A DNA stretch of 64,000 nucleotides, from positions 13,898 to 77,897 of IMG/VR virus record IMGVR_UViG_3300032007_000065. The stretch is one strand, 5' to 3'. Of the stretch, positions 7,313-57,927 are shown in pieces. Below the pieces are notes generated by a model. It ran no database searches. It had not been told where the DNA came from and saw nothing but the letters and a program-made list of their open reading frames with translations. Numbering within the stretch: position 1 is the stretch's first letter; each line of letters begins with the position of its first letter. This DNA is from a virus (Duplodnaviria; Caudoviricetes). Both the position numbers and the translations under genes were made by a program.

Positions 7313-7325
7313 CCACATATCATTC
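7313..7325 (+). promoter_or_regulatory. class A promoter motif CCACATATCATTC
   Basis: Matches the recurrent motif; upstream of the 7375 ORF. Confidence 0.55.
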
Positions 7326-7560: not shown

Positions 7561-7568
7561 CCGCCGAG

Positions 7569-7607
7569 AAAAAAAGAAACAGAGCACTCGGCTCTGTTTC
7601 TTTTTTT
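7569..7607. terminator. bidirectional intrinsic terminator
   Basis: A7GAAACAGAGC-actcg-GCTCTGTTTCT7 between convergent genes. Confidence 0.85.
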
Positions 7608-7616
7608 GTATGTGGA

Positions 7617-10382
7617 TCAGATGTTGAGGTTCAGGTCTTCACCCTCGCCACCGGCGGGCTGTTCAGCTCCAGCTTCGGGTGCTCCGGGTTCCGGCGCTTC
7701 ATCCATTCCGGGGATTCCGGAGACGACGTCGTCGGGGTTCTCGACCTTGGCCATTTCGTTCATGGCTTCGACGGTCTGTTTCTTGACCTTGTCACCCATA
7801 ACTTCGGCCACTGCCTGTTCATAGAGGTCATCGAGGTTGTCCCAGTCGAGGAACGGCACCTCGCGACGAACGATCTTTTCGGTGTATACGGACTTGATGC
7901 GCATGTCGGCCGGTTCACTCTTGTCTTCGCCGACCTTAACGTTGGCCAGCATCTGGGCGTTCTGGTAGGCGGTGCCGAGGGCTTCGGAGTTATTCTGGTT
8001 CGCCAGAATCCTGGGCCTCGGCAGTTTCACCTGCAGGGTACCAACGACGAGATTCTTCAGAGTGTCGTCCATGTCGGAGTCTCGGACCAGACAGCGATAG
8101 AGTTCCGTCAGGGGCTCTTCGAAGTCGCTCTGGAGAGATGCTACACGTCCGGCCACTTTGATGTTGTCGGAGACGATCTTCTTGGCAACTTCGACATTCG
8201 ACTCGTAGTCCATGGCCGTCGGCGGAATGCCGGTGGCTAGGATGCCCCAGCGTTCCAGCATCTGTTCGTAGTCCGTCGACAGGTTGATGTCCTGACCCTC
8301 CTGGGTCTCAAAGTCGACGAGTCGATTGCCGGACAGATCCTTCGGCATTGCAATGTTCGAGTCTCTGGTAATCTTCGAGAACACCATGGAGCTCGACAGA
8401 AGGTCGGTGAACGTGACGTTGCCGGCCTGGAGGTCTCGGATGACGCGGTTCACCTGATTCGACAGGGACTTCGTCACCTTACCACTCGAGATGTGGGCGA
8501 TGGTCTTGTTGCCACCTTTGTTGATGTAGTTCAGCATCTTGGTGATGACGATCGACAGCAGCAGATGGGCCGGGAACATGGCCTCCGACAGAATCGATTC
8601 GCCGTGGCCGTTCTCGTCTTCGTTGCACTTGAACTCGATCATGTTGTCGACGGGAATGAACTGGATCATGTAGTCGTTGTCAACGAGTCCATTGGCAATG
8701 ATGCACTCGGCGATGAGCTGCTTGAAGGCAGCATTCTTTTTGACGAACTTCACCGAGAACTGGTCGATGATGGCACCGGAGATGCTGTCGACGATGTTCT
8801 GGATGGCGTCCTGTTTCTTCTTCTCGGAGATGTCCATCTGGTCGAAGAGAGACATGGAGGCGCCGGTCAAGATGCCGCCAATCTCGGTGCCGTGGCCACC
8901 GGTCTTGGAGCCGCGGCCGCGACGTTTCCGATTCTTCGGTGTCGCGATGACGTGGTAGTAGCCGACCCGCTGGCCAAGTACCTCGATGGGGATGACGTAC
9001 TTGTAGTCGATCCACTTCAGATAGGTGCCGGAGACGCCGTCGAAGTTCTGGCCGCGACGACGGTTCGTCGGATCGTCGGGGTCGACGGTGCCGTCGGGGA
9101 CTCTGTCGTCGTAGGACCTCGGCGCATTCGCCACGTCAGCCTTCGACTTGGTCGACTCCCGGTAGTCCTTTCGGAGATTGAAGAAGTCGTTGTAGCCCTC
9201 CATGGCAATGGTGGCCGTGTCGTCGATGGCCGAGAACATGATCGGCGAATCGATGAAGTAGAAGTTCGGCATGTCGGCTTCAATAGCGCCGACGAGCTTC
9301 TTCGAGAACTCCTCTGCGGTGACGGCGTTTCCGTCCTGGTCACGGCCGAATCGAGTCGCCTGTTCAATGGCACCGGAGACGGCGTCACGAATCAGGGTGC
9401 TGTCGAGGTCGGCCTTGTAGACGAATCCGTCTCGGGCCAGGTACTTCATTTCGGAACCGAAGTTCTCGAAAGCCGGTTCGAAGCCGAACTGTTGGATTGG
9501 GCGCAGCGGAGCGACGTATCCTTCAAAGGCTTCACTGAGGCCGGCGTTCTGTTGGGACTCCTGGGCGATGCCGAGGACATTTGGCTTCGAGGGCTTGCGT
9601 CCGTTGCCGCCGGCGATGGTGCCGGGACTGTCGTGGGGGTCTCCCATGCGGGCATTCGTCGTCTGCTGGGCGCCGAGCTTCGTGATCTTTCCTTCGGCGA
9701 GGCCTCGGCTGTACATGCCAAAGAGCTCCGTGTAGGGAATGTGGTAGACATAGAAGGATCCGGTCACCAGTGTCTTGCGGATGGCGACCTTGACCTTACG
9801 CTGGATCTTGTACTGGTCCTCCAGGGTCTCGATGGCCTTTGTAGCGAGACGAAGCGAGTTGTCGTCGGAGATGCCGGGGATCAGCAGGTTTCGTGTAATG
9901 GTCTGAGAGACGTCGTCCGACGAGACAATGGCATCGAGATAAATGCGCACGGCCTCGCCCAACGACGGGATGAATTTCGAAATGAACTTCAGATCGGACA
10001 CTTCGAGATAGCGATTCTTGTGGATGTCCTGGAAGTATCCGAAGATCTCGCCGACGTTCTGTGTGAATAGGTCGGCAGTGTCGACGGACGGTGCCCGATT
10101 TCCGCCACGCGGGCGAATCCGTTTGCCGTCCTGCTGCGCCCGGATGGACGCGATGAAGTCGACGATCTGGTTGCCGGCGACGCCCTTGGCGACGTCGAGC
10201 TGTCGGTCGATGACACGCTGGAATTCGGCATCCTGCTCCGACAGCAGCTTCCGGTCGGTGTACGTGGGGTCGGTGGCCTGCAGCACTCGGTTGACGGCCC
10301 GGTCGAGCAGCGATGCTCTCTTCATGGCCTGGTTGTACTGCTGACTACTCATCGACTCCTGAATATCTTTATCGTCGGGCAT
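7617..10382 (-). CDS. portal protein (jumbo-phage type)
   Basis: 921 aa; C-terminal half has portal-like pattern (FETQEGQ..ILATGIP..IKVAGRVASLQSDFEEPLTELY). Confidence 0.7.
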   Translation of the reverse strand: MPDDKDIQESMSSQQYNQAMKRASLLDRAVNRVLQATDPTYTDRKLLSEQDAEFQRVIDRQLDVAKGVAGNQIVDFIASIRAQQDGKRIRPRGGNRAPSVDTADLFTQNVGEIFGYFQDIHKNRYLEVSDLKFISKFIPSLGEAVRIYLDAIVSSDDVSQTITRNLLIPGISDDNSLRLATKAIETLEDQYKIQRKVKVAIRKTLVTGSFYVYHIPYTELFGMYSRGLAEGKITKLGAQQTTNARMGDPHDSPGTIAGGNGRKPSKPNVLGIAQESQQNAGLSEAFEGYVAPLRPIQQFGFEPAFENFGSEMKYLARDGFVYKADLDSTLIRDAVSGAIEQATRFGRDQDGNAVTAEEFSKKLVGAIEADMPNFYFIDSPIMFSAIDDTATIAMEGYNDFFNLRKDYRESTKSKADVANAPRSYDDRVPDGTVDPDDPTNRRRGQNFDGVSGTYLKWIDYKYVIPIEVLGQRVGYYHVIATPKNRKRRGRGSKTGGHGTEIGGILTGASMSLFDQMDISEKKKQDAIQNIVDSISGAIIDQFSVKFVKKNAAFKQLIAECIIANGLVDNDYMIQFIPVDNMIEFKCNEDENGHGESILSEAMFPAHLLLSIVITKMLNYINKGGNKTIAHISSGKVTKSLSNQVNRVIRDLQAGNVTFTDLLSSSMVFSKITRDSNIAMPKDLSGNRLVDFETQEGQDINLSTDYEQMLERWGILATGIPPTAMDYESNVEVAKKIVSDNIKVAGRVASLQSDFEEPLTELYRCLVRDSDMDDTLKNLVVGTLQVKLPRPRILANQNNSEALGTAYQNAQMLANVKVGEDKSEPADMRIKSVYTEKIVRREVPFLDWDNLDDLYEQAVAEVMGDKVKKQTVEAMNEMAKVENPDDVVSGIPGMDEAPEPGAPEAGAEQPAGGEGEDLNLNI

Positions 10383-10414
10383 TGGTTTTCACCACCTTGT
10401 GATTTTCGACGTAT

Positions 10415-10426
10415 TAACCCGATGTT
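10415..10426 (-). promoter_or_regulatory. class B promoter motif AACA-N6-TA (AR9 late-promoter-like)
   Basis: Minus strand AACA TCGGGT TA about 30 nt upstream of the portal ATG. Confidence 0.5.
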
Positions 10427-10453
10427 TCCGAGCCAGTATCCTACGGGACCTGA

Positions 10454-10494
10454 GCGAAAAGTCTCGAATTTCGGCCACATATAATTCTAGTGAG
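10454..10494 (+). promoter_or_regulatory. 41-bp extended promoter, copy 1
   Basis: GCGAAAAGTCTCGAATTTCGGCCACATATAATTCTAGTGAG, near-identical to 16736-16776. Confidence 0.7.
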
Positions 10495-10508
10495 AAAACA
10501 TGGAGAAA

Positions 10509-10581
10509 CATACCGAAGTTCTAGTGGTGGAACGCAAGTCCAGAAAACTTGAGGTTGTCGGTTCGAGTCCGGCCGGTGCGG
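10509..10581 (+). tRNA. aberrant tRNA or tRNA-like RNA (nominal anticodon AGA)
   Basis: D stem GTTC/GAAC, anticodon stem CAAGT/ACTTG with loop CCAGAAA, T arm GTCGG-TTCGAGT-CCGGC, acceptor CATACCG/CGGTGCG with one mismatch. C at position 33, short variable loop, no encoded CCA. Confidence 0.65.
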
Positions 10582-10638
10582 GGCGCAAGCTCCGCGCTAT
10601 GTTTTCTTGCTAGTGAATCTTCTTTTTTGTTGCTGGGG

Positions 10639-10674
10639 AACGACTGCTGTTGGCACCGTAAGAGTTTTGTCGTT
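10639..10674 (+). repeat. cassette-leader hairpin, copy 1
   Basis: AACGAC-t-GCTGTT-ggcaccgt-AAGAGT-ttt-GTCGTT; ends about 22 nt upstream of ATG 10697. Confidence 0.7.
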
Positions 10675-10696
10675 TCATTTTCACAATATCTTCATC

Positions 10697-11071
10697 ATGA
10701 GCAATGCACTTCTGGCGATGTCCGGCCCAGCTTTCGGCAATATGGATGTTACTGTCTACGATGTCTACACAGTTACATCTAGCGAGAATCTTGTATCATC
10801 TAGCAACGCCATCACGATTTTCTCCAATCGCTCATGGACCTGGGCGTTTGTGGATATGCAGAATGCGGGTATAATGATAGCGAGACCATTTGCTATCAAG
10901 AATTCAGTCAATTTTCAAGACAAGCAAATTTATGGGTTGCAGGGCAATAGTACTACTAGTTTCAATGTAACACTGATTGGCACATCTACTAGTCTACGGG
11001 GCGGGATGATGCCATATACCAATGCCCCATATTACTTCTGGACAATCACCGTCTATGTTCCATCTGCATAA
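10697..11071 (+). CDS. small Ser/Thr-rich beta-strand protein (putative receptor-binding/adhesin module), cassette A1
   Basis: AT-rich atypical codon usage, no SD; N-terminus MSNALLA similar to the 12646 ORF. Confidence 0.6.
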   Translation: MSNALLAMSGPAFGNMDVTVYDVYTVTSSENLVSSSNAITIFSNRSWTWAFVDMQNAGIMIARPFAIKNSVNFQDKQIYGLQGNSTTSFNVTLIGTSTSLRGGMMPYTNAPYYFWTITVYVPSA

Positions 11072-11077
11072 CTCATC

Positions 11078-11106
11078 GCTGTTGCGTCGTAAGAGCTTCA
11101 GTCGTT
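11078..11106 (+). repeat. cassette-leader hairpin, copy 2
   Basis: GCTGTT-gcgtcgt-AAGAGC-ttcagtcgtt. Confidence 0.7.
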
Positions 11107-11127
11107 TCATTTTCAACTTTCTTCTCT

Positions 11128-11466
11128 ATGGCAGATTCTCTTGGCACTTTCTGCATTGCCTCGGCCGGCAGCGGATCGACAACTGTGACTCTGGTCGCAA
11201 GTGGAGCAGCATCAGGCGGCACATCTGTTACTCTATCATCGGCGGCAGTATTCGTCATGTGCCGACCAATAACATGGTATGGGGCATCCATAACGTCTAG
11301 CACACTATGCGTGATCGCTGGAGGGCGGGCGACTGCAGGCTATGATCATCCAGGTGGCGTTACTTATCAGGCGACTGCATCATTAGCTTCTTCTGGAACT
11401 ACACTAACCCTGGGAAATTGGACCGGTGGTTATACCGCAACTTGGGAGTACAATGCATTTGCATGA
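11128..11466 (+). CDS. small Ser/Thr/Gly/Ala-rich protein, cassette A2
   Basis: 112 aa, no SD; N-terminus MADSL similar to the 12985 ORF. Confidence 0.6.
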   Translation: MADSLGTFCIASAGSGSTTVTLVASGAASGGTSVTLSSAAVFVMCRPITWYGASITSSTLCVIAGGRATAGYDHPGGVTYQATASLASSGTTLTLGNWTGGYTATWEYNAFA

Positions 11467-11630
11467 CCGCCGTCACATACCCGACCGAAGATGTGCGAGC
11501 CGAGCCTGGTCGACATGCCGGGGTCTGAAGGCCGCGAAAAAATCCGCCCGGTGGGCGGCGCGGCGCGCCTTCCGCTCCCTTCGGTCGCGCTTTTTAGAGA
11601 CGAATTGCTGGTGCAATTCGTCTCTTGATG

Positions 11631-12557
11631 TTACTGCAGTTTCTTTTTGAGTGTGTCGATCTCGGTGTTGAGCTCGGCGATGTATCGATTGATGTCGTAG
11701 AGACTCCTGGACAGATTCGCAGTCTTGGCTTGGAGCAATTCAATGGATGCCATGACTTCAGCTTTATCGATGACATCCTGGTTCGGCTCTTCGATAGGCT
11801 CGTCGAATGTCAGGACGGCATCGATGATGCGAGTGGTGCTCGTCAGCTTGCTGATGCCGAGATCTGGGCACTTGAAGATGAAGGATCCGCCACCATCGAG
11901 TTTGATGATGTCTCGGAACCCAGCTCCTTTGATCTGGTTGAAGAACTCCATACCGTAGATGAGGTTACCGGTCTTCGATTGGTAGTACATGACGTAGACC
12001 ATTGACGGGTCATCTTTGACACCGACGAAGACATGGTATGCCGCTCTGACGGTGTCCTTGGCCCAGCCCTGAGGTAGCACGTAGTTGTAGAACGACACGT
12101 CGTCACCATTCCGAAGCACCGGCACACCGGAGACGGCATAGTCGGCATTTTCGTGCCCAGTGAGGTATTCGGTGTCTTTGATGGTCGCCTTCCCGTTCTC
12201 GATGAAGAGAGTCGACGGCGCATGGCCGTAGCAGGGATTCATGTACTCCCATTTACCACTGTCGAAGGTGAACTTCCGGCCGTCGTTGGAGATCTTGCCG
12301 CGCTCGTGCATGTAATGCTCTTCGATGTCGTGGAGTTTGAAGCCGGGATAGATGTCGCATTTCAGATGGCCCGCCGGAAGACGGAACTCGATACCTTTCT
12401 CTTCGTAGTATCCGAAGAAGTTGGCATTGCAGAAGTTGCCGTCTCGAGTGACGTCGCCGCCGGTCCGCTTCTCACGATCGAGCCAGACGACCTTCAGCAT
12501 GGAGGCCGGCATCTCGACAATGGTGACGTCGTTGTACATGTAAGTCTTCTTCAGCAT
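11631..12557 (-). CDS. phosphodiester glycosidase (NAGPA-like) family protein with C-terminal coiled coil
   Basis: IIKLDGGGS motif; GAAAGGAG SD before ATG 12557. Confidence 0.7.
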   Translation of the reverse strand: MLKKTYMYNDVTIVEMPASMLKVVWLDREKRTGGDVTRDGNFCNANFFGYYEEKGIEFRLPAGHLKCDIYPGFKLHDIEEHYMHERGKISNDGRKFTFDSGKWEYMNPCYGHAPSTLFIENGKATIKDTEYLTGHENADYAVSGVPVLRNGDDVSFYNYVLPQGWAKDTVRAAYHVFVGVKDDPSMVYVMYYQSKTGNLIYGMEFFNQIKGAGFRDIIKLDGGGSFIFKCPDLGISKLTSTTRIIDAVLTFDEPIEEPNQDVIDKAEVMASIELLQAKTANLSRSLYDINRYIAELNTEIDTLKKKLQ

Positions 12558-12581
12558 AGATTCGGCTCCTTTCGACTTGAT

Positions 12582-12593
12582 TATGGGATTGCT
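12582..12593 (-). promoter_or_regulatory. class B-like promoter motif AGCA-N6-TA
   Basis: AGCA ATCCCA TA, 25 nt upstream of ATG 12557. Confidence 0.4.
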
Positions 12594-12594
12594 T

Positions 12595-12620
12595 GCTGTT
12601 GCCTGGTAAGAGCTTTGTCG
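12595..12620 (+). repeat. cassette-leader hairpin, copy 3
   Basis: GCTGTT-gcctggt-AAGAGC-tttgtcg. Confidence 0.7.
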
Positions 12621-12645
12621 TACCATTCTACGCGATTCAATTTAT

Positions 12646-12933
12646 ATGGCCAATGCGCTTCTTGCTGCCGGGGTTATTGAGAGCTCTGACCATGATTTAT
12701 TAACTGCACATCAAGGATATGGGACTAGAGATAATCCACTTTTTACATCATCGTCGACTGCTCTCCTTGGAATATTCACTCCTTTCTTTGGTTACTGCAT
12801 ACCGGTAATAAATGCTCCAGGAAATACCATTGCGACTCCAGAGGGGCAGTGTCAAATTGTATGGAATATCTCTGGACAATGTACTGCTCAAGGCAGTTTT
12901 TCAGATACTATCTATTGGGTATATATCGAGTGA
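12646..12933 (+). CDS. small beta-rich protein, cassette B1
   Basis: 95 aa, AT-rich, no SD; starts MANALLA. Confidence 0.6.
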   Translation: MANALLAAGVIESSDHDLLTAHQGYGTRDNPLFTSSSTALLGIFTPFFGYCIPVINAPGNTIATPEGQCQIVWNISGQCTAQGSFSDTIYWVYIE

Positions 12934-12963
12934 CTTGCTGTTGCACACTAAGAGCTTTGTCAC
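12930..12963 (+). repeat. cassette-leader hairpin, copy 4
   Basis: GTGAC-tt-GCTGTT-gcacact-AAGAGC-ttt-GTCAC. Confidence 0.7.
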
Positions 12964-12984
12964 ACATTCACATACTACTATACA

Positions 12985-13365
12985 ATGGCAGAATCTCTCA
13001 TCTCGGCAAGCATCTCGGCCGGAGGATCTAATGCGAATATTTCTCTCATCGCATCTGGCTCATTTTATGTATATACCAGATCACAAACGATTTCTTTTTC
13101 TAATGGCTTATTTGCAGTAATATTTAGCAACCATGCACGCAATGGCTGGAATAGTAACGAAGCGATGGAACCGGGATATGCCGTGGTATTTGCTGGAGAC
13201 ACTGGTATATCGACACCACCATATCGTTATGCCAATGGTACGGCTGTTGATACTAGCGCTAAGGCATCCATGACCACTAGTACATTGACAATCGGTGCTG
13301 TCATAACTGGAAATTGGCAAGAAACGTATTATCAAAAGTCTGGTACATACCGAATTGTCGGATGA
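12985..13365 (+). CDS. small Ser/Thr/Ala-rich protein, cassette B2
   Basis: 126 aa, AT-rich, no SD; starts MAESL. Confidence 0.6.
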   Translation: MAESLISASISAGGSNANISLIASGSFYVYTRSQTISFSNGLFAVIFSNHARNGWNSNEAMEPGYAVVFAGDTGISTPPYRYANGTAVDTSAKASMTTSTLTIGAVITGNWQETYYQKSGTYRIVG

Positions 13366-13506
13366 CTGACCCGGGGAAGGCCCGAAAGGAGCCAGCTTTT
13401 AAGGGTATCAGCCGCGGGCGCGACGGGTTCGCGCAGTTTACGTTTTAATGTACCACAGAGACAGACACCTATCTAAACGAATCGAGTTGTCTAAGGAGTG
13501 ATCCAA

Positions 13507-14298
13507 TTGGCACTTAATTTCGGAGACTACATCGCGAATCCCTATGGAAAGGGAACGGGAATCGTACCGTCGAACGTCATCCGATCGAACATCGAGAACG
13601 AGACGGCGACGATGTACCCGGCTCCCATTCGATTCAAGGCCTACAAAGCTCCCCACCAACATCTGGTGCTGCACTGTAAGCTGCCGTCACGTACGAAGAA
13701 TGACGTCTTCTACGACATCGTCATGGACTTCGACCTGGCCCCGGGTTTCGAGACCAGACGGGCCATCACGAAGTACGACTGTACCGTCTTCTCGAACTCT
13801 CCATCGTTCTACTACACCTATGCCAAGGTGTTCCGGGAGAAGGGAGCACTTTGCCCCTGGCTCCAGAAGAAGTACGAACGCCAGATCATGAAGAAGAGTC
13901 CGGAGAAACGGAATCCATCGAACATTATCGGCTACGAGCGAACGCTCTACACCGGCATGTGGGTGACGATGCAGCAGACGAGAGGCCGCAGTGCGCGAGA
14001 CCTCTACGATAATGCACCGGAAATGACCTACAAGGAGCTGGCGAAGCTCGTTCAGTCCCAGGACGAAATCGAGACCGCCTACGAGAAGGCCCCGTACACC
14101 GCTCGGGAGCAGGCCCGCCGCAACGACATCGAACAGCGGAAGCTGCTACGGCAGAACCTCGGCCCGAAACGGCCGCTGAAACCGAAGACCACGGCACCGA
14201 CGTCGTCGACTGTCCAGAGAACTTCGACGACCCAGAAGACAAAGAAGACGAGTCTCTTCTCGAAGATTCGCCACACGACGAAGACGAAGAAGATATGA
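13507..14298 (+). CDS. hypothetical protein with basic C-terminal tail
   Basis: AAGGAG SD before TTG 13507; typical codon usage. Confidence 0.7.
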   Translation: MALNFGDYIANPYGKGTGIVPSNVIRSNIENETATMYPAPIRFKAYKAPHQHLVLHCKLPSRTKNDVFYDIVMDFDLAPGFETRRAITKYDCTVFSNSPSFYYTYAKVFREKGALCPWLQKKYERQIMKKSPEKRNPSNIIGYERTLYTGMWVTMQQTRGRSARDLYDNAPEMTYKELAKLVQSQDEIETAYEKAPYTAREQARRNDIEQRKLLRQNLGPKRPLKPKTTAPTSSTVQRTSTTQKTKKTSLFSKIRHTTKTKKI

Positions 14299-16546: not shown

Positions 16547-16550
16547 AGAC

Positions 16551-16587
16551 AAAAGAAAGAAAGAGAGCCGATGCTCTCTTTCTTTTT
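16551..16587 (+). terminator. intrinsic terminator
   Basis: AAAGAGAGC-cgat-GCTCTCTTT followed by CTTTTT. Confidence 0.8.
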
Positions 16588-16735
16588 ATCATGACGATAG
16601 GAGGGTCGGGAGAGACCGCTGCCGATAACGGTCTCTCCCTGTCGTGACGCAGTTTGAAATTGAAAAGTCCAGTCGAAACTGTCGCGGTTCCCCAACCGCT
16701 TACGTTTCTGTCCATCTGTGTATAAATTTGAAAAA

Positions 16736-30295: not shown

Positions 30296-30303
30296 TTCGG
30301 GCT

Positions 30304-30338
30304 AAAAGAAAGAGAAGCTGAGCTTCTCTTTCTTTTTT
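30304..30338. terminator. bidirectional intrinsic terminator
   Basis: AAAAGAAAGAGAAGC-TGA-GCTTCTCTTTCTTTTTT. Confidence 0.85.
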
Positions 30339-38966: not shown

Positions 38967-39027
38967 AGAAAGACTCCTTTCTCAGTTTCATCGTAATGAT
39001 ATGTGGCTGAGAAAGGAGTCTTTTACG

Positions 39028-42923: not shown

Positions 42924-43307
42924 TTAGAAATAGATAACAGTGCACGGAGAAAAGAAATAAGTAGTGCCGTAGTTATAAACATATGACTGTGTTACACCAG
43001 TTGAAGTCACTGTAAATGAGCACGAAATAGTTGCAATACTTGTACCATTGAAGTATACTATAGTACACGTGCCACTGCTTCCTGCCATAACAACACAGCC
43101 ACCATGTCCCGGATATATTGTAGCTCTAGAATCGGCATAGCATCCAGTACAAATGCAGACTGCTGCAGAAATACCAGTCGCATTGGATACGCATGTACGT
43201 GATGTAGAAGCTCGCTCTGAATAGCCATCGCAAGATACTGCACCAATAGTTGCAGCACTATTTCCACTCACGTCACTGTCGAATCTCAAAGCTAATCCTT
43301 CACTCAT
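42924..43307 (-). CDS. small AT-rich Ser/Thr/Cys-rich protein resembling the 10.7-13.4 kb cassettes
   Basis: Atypical codon usage; starts MSEGL; frame is also open upstream to 43382. Confidence 0.55.
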   Translation of the reverse strand: MSEGLALRFDSDVSGNSAATIGAVSCDGYSERASTSRTCVSNATGISAAVCICTGCYADSRATIYPGHGGCVVMAGSSGTCTIVYFNGTSIATISCSFTVTSTGVTQSYVYNYGTTYFFSPCTVIYF

Positions 43308-43404
43308 AGTAAAATACCCAATCAATGTCAGTTCAGTTCCACCATTCGCGCATGGCTTCCCTGAGCCTAGTCGATTTCGCATTTAGTTCGATGTCCTCCT
43401 TCAG

Positions 43405-44470: not shown

Positions 44471-45313
44471 ATGGCATTCGAAATCAATATTAACAACAAG
44501 ACCAGTCTGTCGACAAAGGACCTCGCCGCCAAGATTCACTACAGCTTGGTTGGCTGCCCGGCCTACGTCGACAACGACATCCTTCTCCACCAGCCCGACG
44601 AGACCGACCCCAAGGACACTATCCTGCTGCTCTTAAACGGTGAGCGTGCCAGTTCCCCGGAACCCCTGAATCCCCAGGTGACGCTCAACATCGACGTTAC
44701 CGACGCCGACGTCAGCTTCATGGATCTCAATAAAGTCAGGGAGAACTGGGCCAATGTCAAGGCGGATTACGACAAACACGACGCCATCAAGGAGAAGCAG
44801 GCCAGACTCCATGATGCGGTTGCGGCATGGCTGACGGAACACTGCGAGCACGACATTTGGTCCGCAACACCGGAGGGCCAGCTCTACGACGCATACATTG
44901 CCAGTATCCGAGACACCAATGCAACCATTCCGACCCGTCTCGAATTCTCCATTGCCTGCATCGACGCCTTCCTAAAGCGCGACGTCCTCATGTGCGACGG
45001 CGATGTCGATGTCGAGCTCTTCGATACGGATATGGTGACTCGTCTTTGGGAGAACGTCCTCTATGATGATGGCTCTCTCGACGGGCTCGAGTTGACCGCC
45101 GTAGTCCGGAATAAGGAGAAGGCCGACTACGACAGCATGTCCATCGATGAGCGTTGGGCCACGTTTACCAGAGACATGACCGATGAGGAGAAGGCCATCT
45201 GGCTCGACAGGGACGGCAAGCGGAAGGGCTTCGACTATCCCATCACCATCGAAGAGGACGACCAGCTCAAGAAGAAGTTTGCCGAGCTCCACGCCCTCAG
45301 AAAGGACGACTGA
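44471..45313 (+). CDS. hypothetical protein
   Basis: GGAGGT SD; central domain duplicated in the next gene. Confidence 0.75.
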   Translation: MAFEININNKTSLSTKDLAAKIHYSLVGCPAYVDNDILLHQPDETDPKDTILLLLNGERASSPEPLNPQVTLNIDVTDADVSFMDLNKVRENWANVKADYDKHDAIKEKQARLHDAVAAWLTEHCEHDIWSATPEGQLYDAYIASIRDTNATIPTRLEFSIACIDAFLKRDVLMCDGDVDVELFDTDMVTRLWENVLYDDGSLDGLELTAVVRNKEKADYDSMSIDERWATFTRDMTDEEKAIWLDRDGKRKGFDYPITIEEDDQLKKKFAELHALRKDD

Positions 45314-45317
45314 GACA

Positions 45318-45650
45318 ATGTTGAAGAAGGAAAGGCTGGCCAAGCTTCACGACTCTGTAGCAGAATGGCTATCGGAGAACTGCGAACACGATCCTGAATC
45401 CTCCACTCCGGAGGGCCGGCTCTACGATGCCTATGTCGCCAGCATTCGTAACGACGCCAATGCAACTGTCCCGTCCCGTGAAGAATTCTCCATCGCCTGT
45501 ATCGACGCCTTCCTGAAGCGCGACGCCCTCATGTGCGGCGGTGACGTCGATGTCGAGCTCTACGATACGGATCTGACGAATCGTCTCTGGATGAACGTCC
45601 TCTACATGTCGTGGAAGAACGCCGTCAATGAATTCAAGGAGGATAAATGA
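45318..45650 (+). CDS. hypothetical protein, partial duplicate of the preceding gene
   Basis: AAGGA SD; shares EFSIACIDAFLKRD and DVDVEL blocks with the preceding gene. Confidence 0.7.
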   Translation: MLKKERLAKLHDSVAEWLSENCEHDPESSTPEGRLYDAYVASIRNDANATVPSREEFSIACIDAFLKRDALMCGGDVDVELYDTDLTNRLWMNVLYMSWKNAVNEFKEDK

Positions 45651-46026: not shown

Positions 46027-46037
46027 GTTCCAGACAC

Positions 46038-46073
46038 AAAAAGAAAGAGAGCGTCGCGCTCTCTTTCTTTTTT
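46038..46073. terminator. bidirectional intrinsic terminator
   Basis: AAAAAGAAAGAGAGCG-TCG-CGCTCTCTTTCTTTTTT. Confidence 0.85.
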
Positions 46074-52599: not shown

Positions 52600-55500
52600 T
52601 CGGTTCGTGAAACTGTCCACTGGATTGCCCCGCCCAAGCTATGTGCAGCTATGCCCAACTTTGCCGACGCTGAACTTCACTGCACGGGACATTACCAATG
52701 CGGAATATAACCGCACAGGACTTTGCCGGTGTGGAGCTTAACTACACAGGGCTCTACTAACACGGACTCGTGTCGAAGTTTGGCCTGACACTGTTAAACC
52801 TTCCTTCGCCTCACCATCACTTCGCATTCCGAACATGACATACCTGTGCCGCAGCGAGACGATAACTCGCAAAACGTCTCTGGACTATGTCCAGCCGCCG
52901 CTTTGGCTCTGCTAGACTTCCTTCACCGCTGCTTCGGTTTCCGAACATTCATTCGCGCCATGTAATGTCATTGCCTAGCAATGCAATGCCATGACGAGAC
53001 GATGACGTGCGCAGCTCGTCTGGACTATGTCCCACCATCGCATTGGCTTTCGAGCAGGCATTGGAATGACATGCTATGCATCGCCGCAACAAGATCTGGC
53101 TTCTATAACGTGAATATGTCCTGCCGCAACGAGACTAAGCCGTTTATGACGTCACTACGTACTGCCACAACGAGACTAAACCCCGTATAATTCGACTGGA
53201 CTGTGCCATTGCGCGACTACACCAAGCTATGCCATTGCGCTACTGCACCTAGCCTGACGTTAATAAGGCTATGCCGTGGCAATACGGTGATGTGCTTGAC
53301 TCATCCGAACTGTGCCATTCCGCTACAGTCCACGCCTGACGTTAATATACCATACCGCAACGAGACTAAGATTGCTATGCCGTCAATAAGCCAAGCCTGA
53401 CGCTGATAGGCCATGCCTCAACGAAACTAAGTATGCTATACATATCCATGACGATTCAGGGTAATTCATTTCATTTCGCAGCCGGTGATTCGCAGTTCTG
53501 GACGATCCGTAATAGACAATGCCGTTACGTAGTCAGACGTTGCCCACAGCAGTATGCAATTCCTCGTATAGCCTGGACAATTCATTTCAATTCGTAGCCG
53601 GTGATTCGCTGTTCCAGACGATCCTTTGCCTGAACTTAAGAATGCTTTTCCACCCCCAAACTTCGCTAAGTAAAACTCGGCAATGGGACACCGTTACGTC
53701 GTACACTGTGTCTCAGATTGCCATTGCGTTGATTCGCTACAGGTTCCTTCGCAGTTCCGTTGGTTCGCCACACATTCTTCACCATGGCGTAGCATTCTTC
53801 ACAATCGACACCATAGTTTGCCATCGCATTTGTGACGAGATGTAGCGTGTCTGAGATATGGGCCGCCGAGACATTGCGTTGCCTAATTTAACTCTGACCA
53901 GCATCGGACTACTTTCTTCGCCAAAACTTGGCAATACCGAACACTGCCATGACCCCAGATGGCTATGATGTGCTTCACTCTTCCGTCACCTCGCTGGACG
54001 ATGATATGCTTTGCCTTTCCATGGCCATACTCGGTATAGTAGTACATTGCCATGGCCCCACGCGACGATGATGTGCTTCTCCATGACAGAACTTGATTCA
54101 ACTACACGTTTCAATGCCATTGAGTAACTGAGGTATGCGTTGAGCCGCTTCACATTGCCATTGGGTAACTTAGGTGTACACTGGGTCACTATGGCTCGCC
54201 ATTGAGTAACTGAGGTATGCATTGGGCCGCTTCACCTCGTCATTGGGTAACTTAGATGACTTGGACGCGCACTAAGTCACTTTAGTCTGTCATCGCCGCA
54301 TTACACAATGACTCACTTTAGTCTGCCATCGCCGCATTACACAATGACTCACCTTTGCCATAGAATGGTACGCTATGACTCGCCATTGCCATACTTCATG
54401 AGACCTTACCTTGCCATTACTCGACTAGACGGGAATGAAAACCAGACGCTATCATGTATTGCGGTTCCGCTACGGAACGAAACCTCATCGCACCTGGACT
54501 AACGAAGACAGGCCCTCACGAGATGTTGAGCCGTGTAACCAAACAGCGCCAAAACTCTGTCCCATATGACTGAACATCGGTCAACCAAAACATTGCTGCA
54601 TTGCTCAGGACACATCAGTGCCTAAACGAAATGGCACCGCGAGTAACTCTAGCCTACCTATACCAAATGGCACTGCGGCTGACTCTAGCCTACCCATACG
54701 ACATGACGCATTGAATTACTCTAGCCTACCCTGCCCAATACGACACGACACATTGAATTACTTTAGCATACCTTGCCTATACGTTACAGTATGGCGCAGC
54801 AAGTGACTTTAGCCTGCCCTTACGACATGGCACATCGAATAACTTAAGCATGCCTTGCCTATACGAAACTGCACAGCGAGCGACCTCAGCCTACCGTTAC
54901 GGCACTCGATGGCGCCTCGCCTCACCTCACCGTTGTGTCACTATGCAAATCCAGACTCTGCCATTACAATATAGCACATCGTCTGGCTTCACTTCGCCGT
55001 TGTGTTACGCCACTTGGTCTCGTTGCGCTTCACCATTGCTTACACATTGCGAGTCCTTACTTTGCCCCGCCGTTGCTCTACCGCGCAAGTCCTTGCCTTA
55101 CCATTACAACACGCCACTCGAGTATGCCCGACCAGGTTTTACCATAGCAACAGTCGACGATGTCTGACCGCACTTACCTCACCTATGCAGCACTAAACAA
55201 TGGCCCGCCTCGCCCAGCCGACACACAGGACCGGATCACGCGAATGAGCAAAACTTTGCTCTGCCTCAACAGTACTGGACATTGAGTTGCCCTGCCACAG
55301 CATCGTTGCACTGGGCAATGATTAACCTTACTTTGCCAATACACCGAACTGCTTAACCCAGCGTCACAGCACTAAGCCATTGACTAGCCTAGCATCGCCG
55401 ATGCACTGTCATTCTGCACATAGCCATTAGGATACACGGCGTTAACTGGAAGCACCATTCCTAACTCTTCCATTGTCTGACTTTGAAATACAAAACGCTC

Positions 55501-56482: not shown

Positions 56483-56511
56483 AAAAAGAAAGGAACCCGA
56501 AGGTTCCTTTC
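56483..56511 (-). terminator. terminator downstream of the RAMP gene
   Basis: GAAAGGAACC-TTCG-GGTTCCTTTC followed by TTTTT; same hairpin at 57897-57927. Confidence 0.8.
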
Positions 56512-57896: not shown

Positions 57897-57927
57897 AAAA
57901 AGAAAGGAACCCGAAGGTTCCTTTCTT
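57897..57927 (-). terminator. terminator after the DNA polymerase gene
   Basis: Same hairpin as 56483-56511. Confidence 0.8.

Follow-up and report, generated by a model that had tools for sequence, protein, structure and literature searches.

We analysed a 64,000-nucleotide stretch of viral DNA (the window; bases 13898-77897 of a 77.9-kb viral contig with a CheckV completeness of ~32%, IMG/VR record IMGVR_UViG_3300032007_000065) that carries four small plus-strand genes, c1 to c4, each preceded by a conserved signal, GCTGTTG-N5/6-TAAGAGYTT. A transfer RNA (tRNA)-like gene with anticodon AGA lies directly upstream of the array (10509..10581, plus strand; ARAGORN, and 37 bits to Rfam tRNA). It is followed on the same strand by an intrinsic terminator (10575..10598) with a 10-bp stem, seven G-C pairs and a T-rich tail. 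The first gene, c1 (10697..11071), encodes a 124-aa protein of the A1 type beginning MSNALLA. The second, c2 (11128..11466), encodes a 112-aa B-type protein, predicted to be a small beta-sandwich, beginning MADSL. In the window the array is split by a divergent minus-strand gene for a 308-aa protein (11631..12557) with weak similarity to NAGPA (phosphodiester glycosidase); its match to PF09992 had an E value of 0.024, and that of the homologue in the related locus L151 one of 0.006, both below the curated cut-off. Then follow c3 (12646..12933; 95 aa, A2 type, MANALLA) and c4 (12985..13365; 126 aa, a B-type small beta-sandwich protein again, MAESL). The signal ahead of these genes is most likely a dedicated promoter and not a recombination site.

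The signal occurred exactly four times in the contig, each time ahead of one of the four small genes and nowhere else. Both pattern and profile searches placed the copies on the plus strand at 10645..10673 (copy 1, TGCTGTTG-GCACCG-TAAGAG-TTTT-GTCGT), 11078..11105 (copy 2), 12595..12621 (copy 3, which starts 38 nt from the ATG of the divergent gene) and 12937..12963 (copy 4). The looser pattern GCTGTT-N6-9-AAGAG matched the window four times, with starts at 10646, 11078, 12595 and 12937, all on the plus strand, against 0.06 matches expected; 0 of 100 shuffled sequences gave four. No fifth copy was found in the whole contig by regular expression, by a search allowing up to three mismatches or by an nhmmer profile, which recovered the four copies at E values of 2e-7 to 4e-4 and gave its next match at 4.4. 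The distance from TAAGAG to the ATG was 38 nt for c1 and c2, 39 nt for c3 and 36 nt for c4. An earlier reading of this DNA from its letters alone (the sequence-only reading) had described the motif ahead of all four genes with TAAGAG 36-39 nt before the ATG, which these searches upheld. It had also suggested a genome-wide check for copies ahead of ordinary genes led by a Shine-Dalgarno (SD) site, and across the contig there were none. These results demonstrate that the feature is real and non-random.

Homologues were sought with a c2/c4 profile against 1.8 billion representatives and then by word-indexed searches with both family profiles. This yielded a handful of homologues on metagenome contigs, and the signal was present ahead of every family member. 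Altogether 27 distinct copies were found in eight loci, all ahead of A- or B-type genes and all with the start codon 33-41 nt past the signal. Four elements were invariant in 27 of 27 copies: TGTT, TAAGAG, the G located six bases ahead of TAAGAG, and the TT at +7/+8. The spacing between TGTT and TAAGAG was 6-8 nt and that between TAAGAG and GTCRT was 4-6 nt. The core remained constant while the small proteins shared 30-65% identity between phages. In strain L120 (~93% identical; dS, the synonymous divergence, 0.2-0.28), copy 3 was 100% conserved and the core of copy 4 was unchanged.

The genes behind the signal differ from the rest of the phage. An SD site was absent from all four, whereas AGGAG or GGAGG preceded most of the ~80 other open reading frames (ORFs). 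The G+C content at third codon positions (GC3) was 0.38 in c1-c4 (0.47 in c1, 0.30 in c3) versus 0.74 in the remaining genes. The lack of SD sites and the unusual codon usage, both noticed in the sequence-only reading, were therefore borne out. In composition, Ser, Thr, Ala and Gly were doubled, and Lys, Glu, Asp and Arg were very low. Compared with L120, the ratio of nonsynonymous to synonymous divergence (dN/dS) was 0.21 for c3 and 0.25 for c4. Because of the value of 0.21, c3 is considered a real coding gene. Genes of the c1-c4 type thus encode real proteins under purifying selection. The exact c1 protein was also encoded on a 299.8-kb ENA contig of assembly ERZ27256887.

The earlier description of matching N-termini on unrelated bodies held for one pair only. 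The likeness between c1 and c3 consisted of the N-terminus plus weak matches, but c2 and c4 could be aligned from end to end with 27-31% identity, and both were retrieved by a single profile. A comparison of the A-type and B-type families by hhalign showed no link (probability 0.3%). Both types nevertheless start with the pattern M-x-(N/D/E)-(A/S)-L, and in locus L153 the A-type start MGNAL was found on a B-type gene. On account of these shared N-termini, the conserved upstream element, the leader and the first codons seem to move as one unit. Two extra low-GC, Ser/Thr/Gly-rich small genes were observed outside the array, one upstream of the window (G000:C1:13035-13433 on the contig; it starts MSEALLMQSAGFGGS, much like the B-type N-terminus) and one at 42924-43382 on the minus strand of the window. 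They have a GC content of 0.41-0.43, a normal SD and no signal, and may be distant family members under ordinary expression control.

We then compared the arrays of the relatives, whose backbone proteins were 85-100% identical. Arrays held from one cassette (on short contigs) to eleven (in a 20-kb locus). In L152, the virion protein was 98.7% and the tail tube 100% identical to those of the window, and the same tRNA-like gene, terminator and signal were followed directly by a c2-like gene, c1 being absent. L149 had the same arrangement with the junction elsewhere. L151, with a backbone 82-94% identical, had four cassettes (A, B, B, B), and its NAGPA-like gene stood before the array and not inside it. 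The eleven cassettes of L158/L159 comprised five of the c1 type (five tandem c1 homologues in L158), then, after the NAGPA-like gene, five c3-like and one B-type. Cassettes are thus gained, lost and replaced between near-identical phages. The sequence-only reading had proposed interchangeable cassettes and had named this comparison as its test; phages with near-identical backbones did differ at precisely these sites in how many cassettes they carried, of which type and in what order. As a separate observation, L158 carries a TnpB/Cas12f-like gene (L158:3264-4595; OrfB_IS605, Cas12f1-like_TNB) inserted after the tail-tube gene, which is absent from the window.

Evolution of the small genes is also much faster than that of the backbone. 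When the window was compared with L152, the backbone was 99-100% identical with dS of 0.10-0.23 and dN of at most 0.007, and c2 was 65% identical to its counterpart with dS of 0.58 and dN of 0.29. The dN/dS ratio reached 0.6-0.8 in the middle of the c2 protein, and the first 27 and last 12 codons were much better conserved than the middle. The locus resembles the hypervariable phage loci, hot spots of host-range or accessory genes, that hold tandem multigene families: a 99-100% identical backbone surrounds a region varying in copy number and sequence, and divergence is concentrated mid-protein. It differs from them in that each copy keeps a strictly conserved upstream element without an SD, and in that the small genes use A/T-ending codons avoided by the rest of the phage.

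Among the products of the contig are a tail sheath, a virion protein and, encoded two genes downstream of the array, a protein of 727 aa. Over a third of its length, the 727-aa protein was 24-27% identical to RNA polymerase subunits of Bacillus phages AR9/PBS1 and Yersinia phage phiR1-37, which were its sole relatives among deposited phages. Because of this resemblance, the contig was assigned by sequence similarity to a divergent AR9-related jumbo phage, of which it is a fragment, in a group with its own multisubunit RNA polymerases. The related contigs, going by their record names alone, suggest an origin in ruminant gut metagenomes.

We propose that the conserved 30 nt would be the core of a private expression signal, the head, carried by every member of the small-gene family. 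Its parts would be a short hairpin whose loop is TGTT(G), the invariant TAAGAG-YTT box and an SD-less, G-poor leader of ~30 nt. In this proposal, the head would contain a promoter and each cassette would form its own transcription unit. The reader of the head could be one of the phage's own RNA polymerases or another factor, and the unstructured pyrimidine/A-rich leader would permit SD-independent, S1-type initiation. In N4-type promoters, transcription starts ~11 nt downstream of the loop centre; by this analogy the start site would fall inside TAAGAG, whereas a role of TAAGAG as a -10-like box would place it near GTCRT. We consider it about an even chance (roughly 0.5) that the signal is a family-specific promoter plus an SD-less leader.

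Several observations on transcription units are in line with this proposal. The c1 gene lies 3' of the intrinsic terminator of the tRNA-like gene and, because of that terminator, needs a promoter of its own. The start of c3 is 88 nt from the start codon of the divergent gene. In L158 and L162, a strong bidirectional terminator (a G+C-rich stem between an A-run and a T-run; spacer fold energy about -30 kcal/mol) closes every c1-type (A1) cassette. The signal begins 13-25 nt after the T-run and is the only conserved sequence in the gap between terminator and gene. Cassettes closed in this way must therefore be started afresh, and the signal is the sole candidate for doing so.

A second, general promoter-like motif was found in the same contig. 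CCRYATAT(C/A)ATT had 11 copies, most of them 31-90 nt before SD-led genes; it also preceded the tRNA-like gene and a noncoding RNA (ncRNA) at 16.8 kb. The copies lie at 7317, 10479, 16761, 23265, 23989 and 43409 on the plus strand of the window, and on the minus strand at 39002, 57721, 60015 and 61093 of the window and at G000:C1:1992. This motif resembles the AT-rich early promoters of AR9, which are used by the virion RNA polymerase (PMC5312081). None of its 11 copies (0/11) stood before c1-c4, and because it never precedes them, c1-c4 form a separate expression class.

A number of points weigh against a promoter. The sequence evidence fits a promoter and an RNA element just downstream of a promoter alike, and, with ~32% of the genome covered, the signal may occur elsewhere genome-wide. 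It fits no known promoter type among those compared (sigma-70 geometry and the AR9 late motif). The -35 and -10 hexamers of sigma-70 promoters are 16-18 nt apart; a scan of the four heads with the sigma-70 consensus gave no common site, and TGTT and TAAGAG are only 6-8 nt apart. No sigma factor was found in the contig. PF00940 (single-subunit RNA polymerase) had no match in the contig either, but control genomes also gave none and the genome is ~32% complete. The variable spacings (6-8 and 4-6 nt) suit a hairpin better than a rigid two-box promoter. The covarying stem described below has only 2-3 bp in the window copies, and kinship among the copies can inflate the covariation statistic. Lastly, a second sub-array in L158 has no terminators between its cassettes.

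Known promoters of the phage group were also compared. The early promoters of jumbo phages, read by the virion RNA polymerase, consist of a long, well-conserved AT-rich element of about 10-13 nt. In the AR9/phiKZ group, early promoters follow AAATATATATTAT-N6-G and late promoters AACA-N6-TA/G (PMC5312081, PMC7598289). The phage belongs to the same group and the AT-rich 11-copy motif of the contig resembles the early class, but the signal itself is not AT-rich, nor does it follow AACA-N6-TR. In length and information content it greatly exceeds the AR9 late motif, and its use is confined to one gene family. The AR9 late motif AACA-N6-T(A/G) (consensus from PMC5312081) was not found at any fixed place before the four genes, where the sense strand reads TGTT. 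Other candidates were rejected. A minimal TGTT-N6-TAR promoter showed no enrichment over other spacings. A sigma-54 resemblance (TGGCAC, copy 1) and an extracytoplasmic function (ECF)-type sigma spacing, an upstream mini-ORF (TTG TCG TAA), and a pairing of AAGAG with the CTCTT of codons 4-5 were each present in some copies only.

We newly observed a stem in the head, YGC-TGTT(G)-GCR, in which the spacer 3' of TGTT pairs with the bases on its 5' side. It reaches 6 bp in several L158 copies, with double changes (TGGTGC/GCACCA, TAGTGC/GCACTA and TAGCGC/GCGCTA). Among 25 distinct copies, 70% of the cells were paired compared to 62.6 +/- 2.1% in shuffles. The covariation score was 0.254 compared to 0.142 in shuffles, and 0 of 500 shuffles reached 0.254. 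When the partner was slid by 1-3 columns, pairing fell to 23-47% and the score to 0.05-0.16. These results provide moderate support for covariation of the TGTT-loop stem. On the minus strand of L158, the signal hairpins of c1-type cassettes followed by a T-rich run were scored as terminator-like (10684-10700, 11189-11203 and 12191-12207), and these hairpins could block antisense transcription too.

The design recalls the early promoters of phage N4, hairpins read by a virion RNA polymerase that is single-subunit and T7-like, with a 3-nt loop and a 5-7 bp stem (PMC4496689). In N4, the loop and the G-C core are conserved and the outer stem bases vary if paired (PMC4496689). The head likewise combines, in a short inverted repeat, a constant loop and G-C core with a covarying outer stem; it serves few genes and places its hairpin a few bases upstream of the presumed start. 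The differences are that the polymerases of this phage are multisubunit and AR9-like, that TGTT(G) forms the loop, that the stem often has only 3 bp, and that the invariant TAAGAG box comes next. The resemblance to N4 is one of design and not of family membership.

The main rival is an RNA element in the 5' untranslated region, which corresponds to the translational-operator idea of the sequence-only reading and which we regard as possible but doubtful. Here a 5'-terminal or 5'-proximal UGUU stem-loop plus the UAAGAG box would act in the mRNA, either stabilising it or binding a translational activator or repressor that controls the SD-less genes, and the promoter would lie in the AT-rich 15-25 nt upstream. 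In its favour, leaders that differ from lineage to lineage still keep a distance of 33-41 nt to the ATG, covariation of the stem and variation in loop length are as expected for a folded single strand, and the SD-less genes may need a special initiation route. Both L120 changes in the outer stem of copy 4 yield G-U pairs, and a TATAAC/TATAAA-like stretch lies 7-10 nt upstream of CTGTT in several copies. However, this stretch is not conserved and is missing in c1, L149, L152 and copy 3 of L151. The folding energies were no better than those of shuffled sequence and the stems in the window have just 2-3 bp. No Rfam match other than the tRNA was found in 10300-13700 at E <=1, and pairing of the head with a neighbouring 190-nt ncRNA was no better than with shuffled targets.

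The structure drawn in the sequence-only reading was a different one, in which GCTGTT pairs with AAGAGY around a G-G mismatch inside an outer stem and is bound by a protein as an operator. We consider it improbable that this structure is functional. Five of the six box positions were complementary in all copies keeping the G, the outer stems were perfect in copy 1 (AACGAC/GTCGTT, 6 bp) and copy 4 (GTGAC/GTCAC, 5 bp), and the structure was the minimum-energy fold of these two copies. All five pairs but one were invariant, and because its bases do not vary the stem gives no covariation signal. The one variable pair was G-C in 10, G-U in 12 and unpaired in 3 of the 25 copies (T or C for G), and these three breaks had no compensation. 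The outer stems were present in two of the four window copies and missing in copies 2 and 3 and most relatives. Among 14 distinct copies, only copy 1 was better than shuffles (p 0.005; copy 4, p 0.11). The outer stems reported for copies 1 and 4 are therefore present, but the compensatory change read into them was not established. The predicted folds of the heads had z values of -0.7 to +0.1 against shuffled sequence, and the drawn structure and the covarying TGTT-loop stem are mutually exclusive.

A further proposal of the sequence-only reading was an attC-like recombination site used for cassette capture; we judged it together with other kinds of site-specific recombination by which cassettes might be captured or shuffled. 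Integron attC sites are roughly 57-141 bp long with R''/L''-L'/R' arms and a GTTRRRY core, lie at the 3' end of the cassette and are used by an IntI-type tyrosine recombinase. The arrays resemble an integron in that up to eleven short ORFs stand on the same strand, a conserved element with hairpin potential, an imperfect palindrome, is repeated between them, and content and order differ between close relatives. In contrast to an integron, no integrase was found. PF00589 (Phage_integrase) had no match in the contig (genome ~32% complete), and the only PF00239 (Resolvase) match in the contig was sub-threshold (14 bits, E 0.002). The genes in 17-20 kb around the arrays of the relatives held no recombinase Pfam family, save the unrelated TnpB-like insertion of L158. 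Each element stands 5' of its gene, at a set distance from the start codon and not at the cassette 3' end, it measures only ~30 nt, and its GTTGGCA, GTTGCGT and GTTGCCT misfit the R' consensus. The cassettes are paralogous, and there is no fixed junction: in L152 and L149, both without c1, one junction falls in or next to TAAGAG and the other after GTCGT. Recombination at such sites is thus highly improbable, and the incomplete genome leaves the idea a small residual chance.

Since the L152 and L149 junctions fall at different points in the repeated head, homologous exchange is suggested. Cassette turnover would then proceed by ordinary homologous recombination between repeated heads, plus duplication, with no site-specific enzyme. 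The remark in the sequence-only reading that the locus is no simple shufflon holds, as all copies are direct repeats on one strand and the PF00239 match remains below the cut-off. A diversity-generating retroelement (DGR), considered for the A/T-rich variable bodies, was rejected; PF00078 (reverse transcriptase) had no match in the contig and no repeat of the variable bodies was found. A ~290-nt repeat with 85-87% identity at 44780-45070 and 45318-45610 of the window is a partial gene duplication. Its second copy, in DNA called intergenic, starts with ATG. Since the mismatches of the repeat are not adenine-specific, it was dismissed as a DGR template/variable pair. That the signals are mere remnants of tandem duplication, inherited along with paralogous genes and without a function of their own, is scarcely credible, as the paralogues share at most 30% protein identity and synonymous sites between lineages approach saturation (dS of ~0.6), yet TGTT, TAAGAG and TT are invariant in 27 copies.

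Codon usage was compared as well. TCT made up 32% of Ser codons in c1-c4 versus 11% elsewhere, with Ser twice as frequent in c1-c4. In the window, L152 and L156, a tRNA-like gene with anticodon AGA occupies the same position, at the head of the array. Its counterpart in L151 (L151:8138-8210) has AAA, and that in L158 (L158:10052-10123) has an altered loop. In L151, TTT accounted for 60% of Phe codons in the small genes versus 5% in the large genes. The bulk genes of the phage seldom use the U-ending codon that fits the anticodon (TCT or TTT), whereas the small genes nearby use it commonly. This match between an A34 anticodon and U-ending codons is a correlation in two lineages.

Predicted structures were used to search for a function. 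An AlphaFold2 model of c4, built with nine aligned homologues, was an all-beta sandwich with a predicted local distance difference test (pLDDT) score of 77 and a predicted template modelling (pTM) score of 0.72. Foldseek with the B-type model gave no match at E <=0.001. The best VIA-align Z scores of the B type were 5.0-5.7, and according to the tool a Z below 8 may mean only a common arrangement. Its top rows included the R2 pyocin fibre foot, Helix pomatia agglutinin, discoidin I, AP22 gp53 and a capsid protein of jumbo phage S6, with C-terminal domains of tail fibres and tailspikes among them. Pfam and PHROGs had no family for any of the four proteins, and their matches in the ESM Atlas were limited to unnamed clusters scoring below 0.9. 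A role at the surface or in host recognition is plausible for the small proteins because of their low-charge, Ser/Thr-rich composition and fast-evolving middle, and because of the neighbouring NAGPA-like enzyme gene and the adjacent virion protein gene; we put it forward tentatively, with the odds somewhat against it. In the sequence-only reading, the genes were receptor-binding tip modules. The cassette behaviour stands, and receptor binding is a lead only, given fold matches of Z <=5.7.

The locus was also sought in other collections. Neither megablast nor tblastn against deposited phages gave a match for the locus or for c4. Pattern scans of IMG/VR and metagenomes returned just chance single matches plus fragments of the same phage; one of these, L073, falls within an aminotransferase-like ORF. 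An IMG/VR search for loci with both neighbouring genes gave no match. Other features of the contig were noted. A perfect palindrome of ~98 nt at its start (G000:C1:1-98) may be a hairpin end or, more likely, an assembly artefact. Tandem repeat arrays of 36-41 nt (7, 3 and 3 copies) lie at 53100-53400 and 54100-54900 of the window, where ORFs are small or absent and the GC skew is strongly negative; this could be an origin or iteron region. Near-identical bidirectional terminators with an A-run, an AGAGAGC-type stem and a T-run stand between convergent or tandem genes at 7566-7606, 16548-16588, 30298-30338, 46033-46073, 56483-56511 and 57897-57925 of the window.

To our knowledge, the promoters of AR9/phiKZ-type giant phages are short or unknown besides the AT-rich early motif, and we know of no hairpin-dependent one. 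It is an unlikely, though conceivable, reading that the head represents a class of promoters that depend on a hairpin and are read by a multisubunit RNA polymerase of a jumbo phage, comparable to the hairpin promoters of N4 but belonging to an unrelated enzyme system. It would be dedicated to rapidly diversifying host-interaction proteins whose rare A/T-ending codons would be served by the A34 tRNA-like gene. The long, strictly conserved signal with its 27 copies is a ready substrate for in-vitro transcription by these unusual polymerases. It is also a handle for finding the small-gene family in metagenomes, where gene callers overlook SD-less ORFs. The A34 tRNA-like gene and its codon-matched neighbour genes offer a directly testable link. 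Finally, the locus presents an unusually sharp contrast: next to a backbone with 99-100% identity stand one to eleven genes whose rate of change is 40-fold higher, and such contrasts usually mark the interface between phage and host.

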